From a plasmid, in the sequence record NZ_CP028351.1: a stretch of DNA of 64,000 nucleotides; one strand, given 5' to 3'. Below are positions 49,160-49,708 of the stretch, in pieces. The notes below the pieces were generated by a model that was given only the letters and a program-made list of their open reading frames with translations, was not told the DNA's origin and ran no database searches. Within the stretch, counting starts at the first letter, position 1; each line of letters starts with the position of its first letter. Position numbers and translations under genes: made by a program.

Positions 49160-49477
49160 ATGAGAGAGTTAACATCTGTTGAAATGCAGAACGTTTCAGG
49201 CGCAGGTTTTTTTGATTTCATCGGTTCAGTCGTTGTAGGTGCAGCTGCAGGTATTACTGCTTTCGGTCTTAAATGGGCCATGAGCGGCGGTAGCGCGGGC
49301 GGCGTCCTGGGCGTTGGTATTATCTCTGGCGGTGTTGGTCTGATCGTGGGTGCCGTTGTGGGGCTGGTCGATGGCGCACTTTATGGCGCGATGAATGGCT
49401 GGGAAACAACTGCAGGCTGGTTCAATAATATTGTTGAAAACCAGCTTGACCTGGGAACAGGTGTAATTACTGCATAA
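49160..49477 (+). CDS. class II microcin precursor with double-glycine leader (MccV/MccL-type)
   Basis: The leader MRELTSVEMQNVSGAG is nearly identical in pattern to the colicin V and microcin L leaders (MRxLTLNELDxVSGG/AG). The core is Gly-rich and hydrophobic. RBS GGAGAT. Confidence 0.8.
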   Translation: MRELTSVEMQNVSGAGFFDFIGSVVVGAAAGITAFGLKWAMSGGSAGGVLGVGIISGGVGLIVGAVVGLVDGALYGAMNGWETTAGWFNNIVENQLDLGTGVITA

Positions 49478-49486
49478 GGAAAAATC

Positions 49487-49708
49487 ATGCGTGAATTGAA
49501 AACAAATGAAATTGACGGCGTTAGTGGCGGCTCATTAACTTCCGTCATTTTAGATTTCTTTAAACAGATTGGCGGAAGCTCCAAAGAAAAAACTGAGTGG
49601 GTACGTCCGGAATCAATACCAGAAGCTAACCCGGTTAGCGGTACTGCTTTTGGTATGGGTATTGTCGGTGTTGCTGCGGCCGTAGTTTTCGGCCTGCTGA
49701 TGTTCTGA
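49487..49708 (+). CDS. second double-glycine-leader peptide (microcin-like) with C-terminal TM helix
   Basis: Leader MRELKTNEIDGVSGG. The 58-aa core ends in the hydrophobic helix GMGIVGVAAAVVFGLLMF. RBS AAGGAAA. Starts 10 nt after the first precursor. Confidence 0.7.
   Translation: MRELKTNEIDGVSGGSLTSVILDFFKQIGGSSKEKTEWVRPESIPEANPVSGTAFGMGIVGVAAAVVFGLLMF

Follow-up and report, generated by a model that had tools for sequence, protein, structure and literature searches.

What is the function of two adjacent small plasmid genes that each encode a peptide with a double-glycine leader and that have no immunity gene beside them? The question is raised by a 64,000-nucleotide stretch of plasmid sequence (record NZ_CP028351.1), which is referred to here as the window; its two open reading frames (ORFs) of interest are called ORF1 and ORF2. 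The window is approximately 98% identical to plasmid pPag1 of Pantoea vagans C9-1, and the region is common to 45 Pantoea plasmids of one replicon type, in which both ORFs are annotated as 'hypothetical protein'. Judging from the comparisons presented below, ORF1 and ORF2 are very probably leader-cleaved substrates of the exporter encoded in the same locus and form a functional pair. The reading that we favor, with a probability of about 0.42, goes one step further and regards the pair as a two-peptide, membrane-active, bacteriocin-like effector that would act at short range together with the fimbriae encoded beside it. The two genes are located as follows.

49160-49477, + strand: ORF1, a 105-aa pre-peptide whose sequence starts MRELTSVEMQNVSGAGFFDF
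49487-49708, + strand: ORF2, a 73-aa pre-peptide whose sequence starts MRELKTNEIDGVSGGSLTS

The two peptides and their exporter

Both pre-peptides begin with a 15-aa leader of the double-glycine type, MRELTSVEMQNVSGA in ORF1 and MRELKTNEIDGVSGG in ORF2, after which the cores begin with GFFDF and SLTS, respectively. The length and the ending of these leaders are those of class II microcins (15-19 aa, ending in GG, GA or GS). A regular-expression scan for double-glycine leaders in all six frames of the 64-kb window matched ORF1 and ORF2 only, and the leader positions M1, R2, L4, E8, V12, S13, G14 and G15/16 are invariant or nearly so among the homologues, which bears out the conserved leader that the first-pass annotation had assigned to both genes. 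The separate ribosome-binding sites that it had proposed are also recognizable, as Shine-Dalgarno-like motifs 8 nt upstream of ORF1 (GGAG) and 7 nt upstream of ORF2 (AGGA). The gap between the two genes, given there as 10 nt, measures 9 nt, and both core sizes suggested are borne out: 58 aa for ORF2 and, for ORF1, 90 aa if the cut falls after G-A, as in a published construct, or 89 aa if it falls after GAG.

The predicted mature form of ORF1 (90 aa, 8.72 kDa (8,719 Da), pI 4.05) consists of 24% Gly, has ten GxxxG motifs and no Cys, and is strongly hydrophobic, with a grand average of hydropathy of 0.97. AlphaFold2, run on the family alignment, predicts a two-helix hairpin (residues 15-49 and 53-93) preceded by a short helix in the leader, with a mean predicted local distance difference test (pLDDT) score of 79. 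The predicted mature form of ORF2 (58 aa, 6.09 kDa (6,088 Da)) has an N-terminal amphipathic segment, SLTSVILDFF, the conserved motif EW.RP..P and, over the last ~20 residues, a Gly/Ala-rich membrane helix at the C-terminus. Both mature peptides are below 10 kDa and are encoded in a Gram-negative host, Pantoea, as is the case for class II microcins. Their C-termini, ...LGTGVITA in ORF1 and ...FGLLMF in ORF2, do not match the Ser/Gly-rich tail of class IIb siderophore microcins, and no modification genes of the mchA, mchC or mchD type are present in the locus.

Homologues of ORF1 fall into 66 clusters (60-99% identity) and those of ORF2 into 44 (62-97%), and the cores are conserved as well as the leaders; the ORF2 leader, MREL..E..VSGG, is invariant in 21 of 21 sequences. 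In pairwise comparisons with eight diverged loci, the ratio of nonsynonymous to synonymous substitution rates (dN/dS) ranges over 0.06-0.21, the synonymous sites being saturated or almost so, and by this measure both genes are under purifying selection. Because of the homologue clusters, the invariant leader positions and the low dN/dS, ORF1 and ORF2 can be regarded with great confidence as real protein-coding genes that are expressed.

A search with the ORF1 profile against 1.84 billion representative proteins returned only 51 related clusters (23 at E <= 1e-10), nearly all of which contain proteins of 100-113 aa that align from end to end. Some of these relatives are labeled 'DUF5862 domain-containing' in UniRef, which denotes a family without a described function, and the Pfam model DUF5862 (PF19180) was matched by 19 of the 26 profile-linked relatives that were scanned (best E 6.7e-9); the ORF1 of the window itself lies below the threshold (E 1.4). 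According to these profile comparisons, the ORF1 core belongs to a separate small family that is related to DUF5862. Pfam and NCBIfam scans of both peptides returned nothing significant, the ORF1 family profile had no match in the PDB, and a megablast search of E. coli genomes gave no match. The kinship with MccV/MccL-type microcins on which the first-pass annotation had relied is confined to the leader: Pfam MccV aligns at E ~1 with residues 1-48 and 1-18, Bacteriocin_IIc aligns at E ~1 with the leader and the N-terminal part only, and the cores have no homology to the characterised microcins MccV, L, H47, M, E492, N, PDI and S.

The presence of a leader-bearing microcin-like peptide on pPag1 is, for ORF1, already published. 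The amino-acid sequence of ORF1 is identical to that of the candidate 'Pantoea_MccP06', and the published mature form, GFFDF...VITA, is the 90-aa core (PMC13174018). In that paper (BMC Biotechnol, 2026), 23 candidates identified with the cinful microcin hidden Markov model (HMM) in genomic sequences from Pantoea, Erwinia and Xanthomonas were tested by secreting their cores from E. coli through the MccV system; MccP06 significantly reduced the growth of E. coli W3110 in one of two trials, far below the effect of MccV, and in the published alignment it clades with MccE18, MccP05 and MccE19, apart from all ten reference microcins (PMC13174018). ORF2-type sequences occur in the raw cinful output as leader-only BLAST matches and were not among the tested peptides (PMC13174018). 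That study thus concerned a single HMM-picked candidate without ORF2, without the native exporter and with E. coli as the only target, and the partner peptide, the fimbrial linkage and the DUF1795 gene described below are not discussed in it. Weak and irreproducible inhibition by MccP06 would be expected if ORF1 needs a partner, an observation that is compatible with such a need and not diagnostic of it. The supplements of the 2022 cinful paper do not contain these sequences, and relatives may have been tested earlier.

The genes of a type I secretion system lie further downstream on the same strand.

55583-56905, + strand: TolC-family outer-membrane channel of the type I secretion system (OEP domain)
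56931-58190, + strand: HlyD-family membrane-fusion protein of the type I secretion system
58208-60391, + strand: Peptidase-C39 ATP-binding cassette (ABC) transporter (PCAT), with the C39 domain matched end to end (E 3.5e-36)

The catalytic Cys, His and Asp of the PCAT are visible in the motifs Q..CG, HFVV and HDP, and the combination of a C39 ABC transporter, a membrane-fusion protein and a TolC-like channel is that of class II microcin exporters. The downstream exporter mentioned in the first-pass annotation is therefore present and complete; its position requires qualification, as it begins ~6 kb from the peptide genes, behind a fimbrial operon. Because no other exporter of this kind lies nearby, because this one is part of the same conserved module, and because the peptide genes decay where it has been deleted, we presume that the PCAT cleaves the leaders and exports ORF1 and ORF2.

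Linkage to fimbriae and the partner gene

The operon between the peptides and the exporter is of the type-1-like chaperone-usher kind and spans 49813-54828.

49813-50343, + strand: fimbrial major subunit (fimA)
50405-51142, + strand: fimbrial chaperone
51169-53754, + strand: fimbrial usher
53767-54828, + strand: two-domain tip adhesin

The best PDB match of the major subunit, over its full length, is 10ss chain a (E 6e-29), a chain of 179 residues labeled 'Ferrous iron transporter B'; this label is a misfit for a fimbrial subunit, and the entry may be mislabeled.

The same twelve-gene layout was found in Rahnella variigena, Gibbsiella quercinecans, an Erwinia sp. and many Pantoea species. A pattern-based scan of a genome collection with the TolC-like protein reached close Pantoea/Erwinia relatives only. 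Other arrangements are listed here, with pep1 and pep2 denoting the ORF1-type and the ORF2-type gene.

Burkholderia ubonensis, B. cepacia, Enterobacter mori and Mixta tenebrionis: (regulator)-TolC-HlyD-PCAT-pep1-second small ORF-fimA-chaperone-usher-adhesin
Metagenomic contig L026: same order as in Burkholderia, the fimbrial genes being preceded by three leader peptides and followed by two more
Locus L034: HlyD-PCAT-MerR-pep1-fimbrial operon
Paramixta manurensis: pep1-third peptide-pep2-fimbrial operon, without an exporter within 10 kb
Klebsiella pneumoniae: fimbrial operon-small ORF-pep1-HlyD-PCAT

All of the inspected ORF1-subfamily contexts (10/10) adjoin a fimA-chaperone-usher-adhesin operon, in four different gene orders, and the exporter is present in most of them. 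In Erwinia endophytica, by contrast, a more distantly related DUF5862 member was found as an orphan without fimbriae. The orthology comparison, which covered the loci other than L034 and Mixta, gave identities to the window genes of 45-49% for the usher and 44-53% for FimA, against a baseline of 31-33% for an unrelated usher, and the PCAT is 61-65% identical between the module versions and the window. Judged by these identities, the fimbrial and exporter genes are orthologous to those of the window, Klebsiella excepted.

An ORF2-type partner follows the ORF1-type gene in Pantoea, Rahnella, Gibbsiella, Erwinia, E. mori, Paramixta, B. cepacia and B. ubonensis, and the two types also occur together in L026. 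Where the ORF2-type sequence was read (Pantoea, Gibbsiella, E. mori, Paramixta, L026 and both Burkholderia species), the same architecture was observed: a double-glycine leader, an S.I(L/M)DF(F/I)-like segment, EW or PW, and a Gly/Ala-rich membrane helix. In Mixta, the ORF1-type gene is followed by a 94-aa ORF, whereas neither the Klebsiella locus nor L034 yielded an ORF2-type partner. The marks of a two-peptide system, namely adjacent genes, a double-glycine leader for each, and co-occurrence, are present in the window, and co-occurrence extends to the Pantoea-clade loci and to those of E. mori, Paramixta, L026 and both Burkholderia species. The first-pass annotation had offered a choice between a two-peptide bacteriocin and two independent microcins; the former fits better because the pair co-occurs, in the same order, in most of the loci read.

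The set of leader peptides is larger in certain loci. A third double-glycine peptide type (68-71 aa, ...NPLNG..IG(K/R).IG...) lies between the ORF1-type and ORF2-type genes in L026 (4563-4778) and in Paramixta (L029 10354-10560), and L026 has two extra 108-aa DUF5862-like peptides after its fimbrial operon. Compared at the DNA level with the close relative L011, the exporter genes of the window are 95-98% identical, whereas ORF1, ORF2, fimA and the adhesin gene are 77-87% identical; therefore, the secreted or exposed parts diverge fastest. As a separate observation, autotransporter genes lie directly 3′ of the fimbrial operon in Paramixta (L029) and Mixta (L033).

Natural losses, control regions and immunity

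Three P. agglomerans plasmids, from strains CFBP8785, DAPP-PG734 and CFBP13593 (L002, L021 and L022), share a deletion that extends from just past ORF2 into the DUF1795 gene and removes the fimbriae and the exporter. In comparison with the closest intact relative (94% identity), ORF1 (318 nt) has been hit at least twice independently in this lineage and is broken in all three strains: one has a 1-nt deletion exactly at the leader/core junction, which shifts the frame, and the other two carry a TCA-to-TGA nonsense change at Ser13, in one case together with a 15-nt deletion. In one strain the start codon of ORF2 has changed from ATG to AAG, and ORF2 is intact in two of the three. Pseudogenes of the pair were seen only where the exporter has been deleted. 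The repeated inactivation of ORF1 in this lineage suggests that, once the remainder of the module is gone, ORF1 has no use or does harm. The reciprocal arrangement is found in P. vagans LMG 24199 and Pantoea sp. GD03673 (L003 and L018), where the regulators and the exporter are kept and ORF1, ORF2, the orthologous fimbriae and the DUF1795 gene are absent.

The non-coding regions and the regulatory genes around the pair are the following.

49034-49103, + strand: conserved non-coding block AATTATGGATnTTTT[A/G]CTATTT with a hairpin, ~55-125 nt 5′ of the ORF1 start
48124-49033, unstranded: AT-rich intergenic region (31% GC) between the winged-helix gene and the conserved block
49716-49733 and 49742-49773, + strand: two hairpins between the ORF2 stop and fimA (within 49716-49773, per-sequence folding)
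46858-47508, - strand: BglJ/RcsA-like LuxR-family regulator
47533-48123, - strand: IprA-like winged-helix protein, the most conserved gene of the module (82-99% amino-acid identity)
54884-55546, + strand: NarL/RcsB/FimZ-type response regulator with receiver and GerE domains (220 aa, intact)

Megablast homology to diverged plasmids begins at window position 49034, that is, at the conserved block, which holds a possible -10 box (TACTAT/TGCTAT) and the hairpin GCGCCGTTCGCTTGAAGCGGC at 49083-49103. Block and hairpin probably serve the peptide genes as promoter/operator and 5′ leader. From the winged-helix gene to ORF1 (48124-49159), the gap measures 1,036 bp with 31% GC in the window and 1000-1040 bp with 30-34% GC in 16 of the 16 loci measured; its length and low GC content are kept while most of its sequence is not conserved, and the AT-rich gap is probably a regulatory region. 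In this it is similar to the large, silenced regulatory regions that other surface-structure operons have. An invertible element similar to the fim switch was considered for this gap and rejected, as only short repeats at chance level are present, and an Rfam scan of the gap gave no match, with a few sub-threshold matches at 46.7 kb.

The hairpins between ORF2 and fimA are found at the same positions, with different stem sequences, in other loci of the Pantoea clade. They were missed by RNAalifold on a MAFFT alignment, in which the stems are out of register, and are shown by folding each sequence separately. A simple terminator scan between ORF2 and fimA found none. Because no U-tract lies 3′ of the hairpins in the window, read-through from ORF2 into fimA is plausible, and the hairpins could set the expression ratio of peptide to pilin.

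The two minus-strand regulators are transcribed divergently from ORF1, and no histidine kinase is encoded in the window locus. In P. vagans C9-1 pPag1 (L001 12319-12980), the response regulator is split into two annotated fragments; therefore, this reference biocontrol strain may regulate the module differently. In E. mori, a BvgS/EvgS-like hybrid kinase with periplasmic solute-binding domains (L027 16569-20318, - strand) and a NarL-type regulator lie beside the module, and in B. ubonensis a large gene with an annotated substrate-binding domain (L025 1-2575, + strand) lies in the equivalent position beside the regulator; by annotation and size it may be a BvgS-like kinase.

The absence of an adjacent immunity gene, as stated in the first-pass annotation, was confirmed in the places inspected around the pair. 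The upstream gap contains no ORF conserved beyond close relatives (16 loci measured), the 9 nt between ORF1 and ORF2 leave no room for a gene, and the 104-nt spacer that separates ORF2 from fimA contains two hairpins but no ORF. ORFs in alternative frames or antisense over the pair differ from locus to locus, and none is conserved. For the Burkholderia, Enterobacter, Paramixta, Mixta, Klebsiella and metagenomic loci, the gene tables list no small membrane protein of the multi-pass type next to the peptides. The adjacent immunity gene that characterizes class II microcins and two-peptide bacteriocins is thus not found upstream, between, downstream or in overlapping frames.

One further gene is coupled to the exporter.

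60384-60815, + strand: DUF1795/DcrB-related protein, 143 aa, whose start overlaps the PCAT stop by 8 nt

This protein matches Pfam DcrB/DUF1795 (E 9.7e-20) and has no signal peptide. Its only sequence match in the PDB is SciW, an Eag chaperone of Salmonella (E 2e-7, residues 6-130), with which the motifs ISRD, Q.A and YQ.QA.F line up, and Foldseek aligned its AlphaFold2 model (pLDDT 87) with SciW, free or bound to the Rhs1 transmembrane domain (6xrb/6xrr), at a TM-score of 0.75; the TM-score to EagT6 is 0.58. Eag chaperones hold the GxxxG/A membrane helices of type VI secretion system (T6SS) effectors in a hydrophobic claw until secretion, and homology to DUF1795 should be read with caution in that it also covers the non-T6SS protein DcrB (PMC7773334). 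The nearest relative outside the module in the plasmid collection, a Cronobacter protein (42% identical, E 5e-38), directly precedes an Rhs toxin with a prePAAR motif and an N-terminal glycine-zipper transmembrane domain.

The protein thus resembles the Eag chaperones SciW, EagT6 and EagR1 in fold, length (~145 aa), cytoplasmic location without a signal peptide, and motifs. However, the stop codon that its gene overlaps belongs to an ABC transporter of type I secretion, and it has no prePAAR, PAAR or Rhs neighbor; its neighbors are the PCAT and a FidL-like gene, and no Rhs, PAAR or T6SS gene is present in the 64-kb window. Because the window holds no T6SS client and does hold two GxxxG-rich exported peptides, we propose by analogy that the DUF1795 protein may act as a chaperone of the hydrophobic pre-peptides for the ABC exporter. 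Only the module version of Pantoea, Erwinia and Rahnella has the gene: B. ubonensis lacks it, and in the loci of E. mori, Mixta and B. cepacia neither a match nor an annotation pointed to it. Two candidate relationships were discarded: a 141-aa ORF 3′ of the B. ubonensis fimbrial operon, considered as Eag-like, looks like a transposase or integrase fragment, and the likeness of ORF1 to an Rhs transmembrane domain (E 0.012, two-sequence comparison) is compositional only.

The module is flanked on one side by a pertactin-type autotransporter gene (43478-46384, + strand), whose passenger region contains a tandem 9-nt repeat at ~45375-45445 that encodes (Ala-Thr-Asp) ~7x, and on the other side by FidL-like and MarT-like genes (60891-62218, - strand). 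Together, these flanks presumably resemble the misL-fidL-marT group of Salmonella pathogenicity island 3. The same plasmid segment also carries an arn-like operon (ArnB-, ArnA- and ArnT-like; lipid A aminoarabinose modification) at ~24000-32500 on the - strand and a SPATE-type S6 serine-protease autotransporter of 1342 aa at 37950-41978 on the - strand.

Competing explanations and known systems

According to the two-peptide effector reading that we favor, a promoter ~100 nt upstream of ORF1 would drive synthesis of the pre-peptides. Their glycine-zipper helices would, in the Pantoea clade, be kept soluble and out of the inner membrane of the producer by the Eag-like DUF1795 protein, whose translation is coupled to that of the PCAT. 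The PCAT would then cut after Gly-Ala15 in ORF1 and Gly-Gly15 in ORF2 and export an 8.7-kDa hairpin and a 6.1-kDa one-helix peptide, and outside the cell these two very hydrophobic peptides would act jointly on a membrane. Their action would be of short range, on cells bound by the fimbriae, because hydrophobic peptides diffuse poorly and because the pair is constantly inherited with one type of fimbrial operon. The physical nature of the peptides points to membrane insertion, and the nearest analogue of the chaperone serves membrane-inserting toxins.

At a broader level, and with odds that fall somewhat short of even, we tentatively suggest that the pair, the type I exporter and the type-1-like fimbriae constitute one undescribed functional module across Gamma- and Betaproteobacteria. 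The glycine-zipper peptides might in that case act via or alongside the pilus, possibly as a fimbria-guided contact or proximity toxin or else as a secreted component of adhesion, and the Pantoea clade might possibly have re-used a T6SS-type Eag chaperone for type I secretion substrates.

Several observations weigh against the two-peptide effector. No immunity gene is present in the Pantoea-type loci and none is apparent elsewhere, which is unusual for a self-toxic bacteriocin, and the only experiment concerns ORF1 alone in E. coli, with an effect in one of two trials. The long-term co-divergence of the components and the purifying selection differ from the patchy, fast diversification typical of bacteriocins. 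The adjacency to fimbriae could partly reflect the common descent of one island, although the Klebsiella arrangement looks independent. The Eag-like gene is missing from the module versions outside the Pantoea clade and is therefore not essential to the mechanism; moreover, L003 and L018 are ~88-89% identical and have the same layout, so they probably represent one event, and the joint absence of the Eag-like gene and the peptides counts once. Finally, E. mori has a full intrinsic terminator at the site equivalent to the ORF2-fimA hairpins (L027, ~10655-10700), which separates the peptides from fimA, so co-transcription is not general.

The principal rival, which we consider somewhat unlikely, assigns the peptides a non-antibiotic role associated with the fimbriae, such as adhesion, aggregation, biofilm matrix, a signal or an accessory function. 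The constant linkage to one orthologous fimbrial operon, frequently with adjacent autotransporter adhesins, agrees with this role, as do the regulators, which are of the surface-structure type (RcsB/FimZ/BglJ-like) and are joined by BvgS-like kinases beside the module in E. mori and, by annotation and size, in B. ubonensis. The lack of an immunity gene in any of the loci and the purifying selection with long-term co-divergence also agree with it. A precedent exists in the double-glycine-leader EbfG peptides, which are reported to enable biofilm formation in Synechococcus (PMC4997328). However, a 90-aa glycine-zipper hairpin and a membrane-helix peptide look like membrane-inserting molecules rather than components of a matrix or a signal, the chaperone analogue serves toxins that insert into target membranes, and ORF1 inhibited growth in one trial, whereas direct evidence of an adhesion phenotype is lacking.

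The locus is probably not an ordinary microcin cassette. In that explanation, clearly unlikely in our estimation, the genes encode two independent diffusible class IIa microcins, each with a receptor and target of its own, for which immunity lies elsewhere or is unneeded because the producer lacks the receptor, and the fimbriae are a mere neighbor. Its attraction is that double-glycine leaders occur with a linked PCAT, membrane-fusion protein and TolC-like channel, that the cinful HMM caught ORF1, which as MccP06 significantly affected growth in one of the two published trials, and that orphans without fimbriae exist among the distant DUF5862 relatives. Some loci do encode several independent microcins, for example H47/M. 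It is made doubtful by the absence of an immunity gene in more than ten diverged loci, the co-divergence of the components, the constant fimbrial neighbor, whose adjacency to the peptides survives rearrangements, and the weak and irreproducible activity of ORF1 alone on E. coli; the coupling of an Eag-chaperone homologue to the exporter adds to this doubt. In addition, the core is unlike that of any reference microcin, and the ORF1 and ORF2 types occur together in most loci.

Could ORF2 itself protect the producer, as an immunity factor against ORF1 in the inner membrane? It is small, lies directly 3′ of ORF1, has a membrane helix, co-occurs with the ORF1 type in most loci, and fits known microcin immunity genes in position and size (criteria in PMC12219008); the exporter-deleted lineage, moreover, keeps ORF2 intact in two of three strains while ORF1 is broken in all three. 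We nevertheless consider this role highly unlikely, given that the double-glycine leader, the mark of a PCAT substrate, is invariant in the 21 ORF2 sequences and is kept in the Burkholderia, E. mori and Paramixta counterparts. To our knowledge, such a leader is missing from known immunity proteins, which as a rule span the membrane with more than one helix. That the two are chance ORFs or decaying remnants without function, as the 'hypothetical protein' annotation and the lack of a curated family match might suggest, is refuted by conservation from Pantoea to Burkholderia, a dN/dS of 0.06-0.21, leader matches limited to these two genes in 64 kb, and pseudogenes only where the exporter has been deleted.

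Our literature searches found no paper on DUF1795 together with microcins, on DUF5862, or on a link of chaperone-usher fimbriae with microcins or C39 transporters. In the literature searched, we found no earlier report of the partner peptide, of the fimbrial linkage in two proteobacterial classes, of an immunity gene being consistently absent, of peptide decay once the exporter is lost, or of the coupling of an Eag-type chaperone to a type I exporter. These points have a practical bearing. Class II microcins are mined by their leader and tested singly in E. coli, and some of the matches may be halves of two-peptide systems, which could explain weak results such as that of MccP06; genomic context therefore matters. 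A link between secreted membrane-active peptides and chaperone-usher fimbriae could represent a new form of short-range delivery of hydrophobic effectors or a new accessory of pilus adhesion, and the coupling of an Eag-like protein to an ABC exporter would, if true, be the first hint of this family serving secretion other than T6SS. The carriers are plant- or insect-associated (Pantoea biocontrol strains, Rahnella, Mixta, E. mori) or opportunists (the B. cepacia complex and possibly Klebsiella). P. vagans C9-1 is a commercial antagonist of fire blight, and natural controls are at hand in strains that have the exporter without the peptides or broken peptides without the exporter.

If the module is real, it would be neither a classical microcin nor a known fimbrial accessory. 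Of the systems with which it can be compared, EbfG and PteB of Synechococcus elongatus are alike in type: small double-glycine-leader proteins are exported through a PCAT and are reported to serve a surface role and not antibiosis (PMC4997328). They are cyanobacterial and without chaperone-usher fimbriae, and the likeness implies no sequence relationship. Among Gram-positive bacteria, the class IIb two-peptide bacteriocins, such as lactococcin G and plantaricin EF/JK, are encoded by adjacent double-glycine-leader genes served by one PCAT, and their helical, GxxxG-rich peptides are thought to pair in the membrane. Those peptides, however, are ~25-40 aa long and of similar sizes, and an immunity gene follows; the pair here comprises 90 and 58 aa, belongs to Gram-negative bacteria in which an outer-membrane channel is required, and has no immunity gene. 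We know of no two-peptide microcin described to date. The class IIa microcins (MccV, MccL, MccN and MccPDI/S) share with the pair a size below 10 kDa, a 15-aa MRE(L/I)...SG(G/A) leader, a Gly-rich hydrophobic core, and export by C39-ABC/HlyD/TolC. In contrast with them, the pair has no core homology, no Cys or disulfide and no adjacent immunity gene, a TolC-like channel is encoded in the locus, the two peptides look obligately paired, and fimbrial genes always lie beside them. Among these microcins, MccPDI needs proximity between producer and target and is the closest functional analogy to the short-range action that we propose for ORF1 and ORF2.

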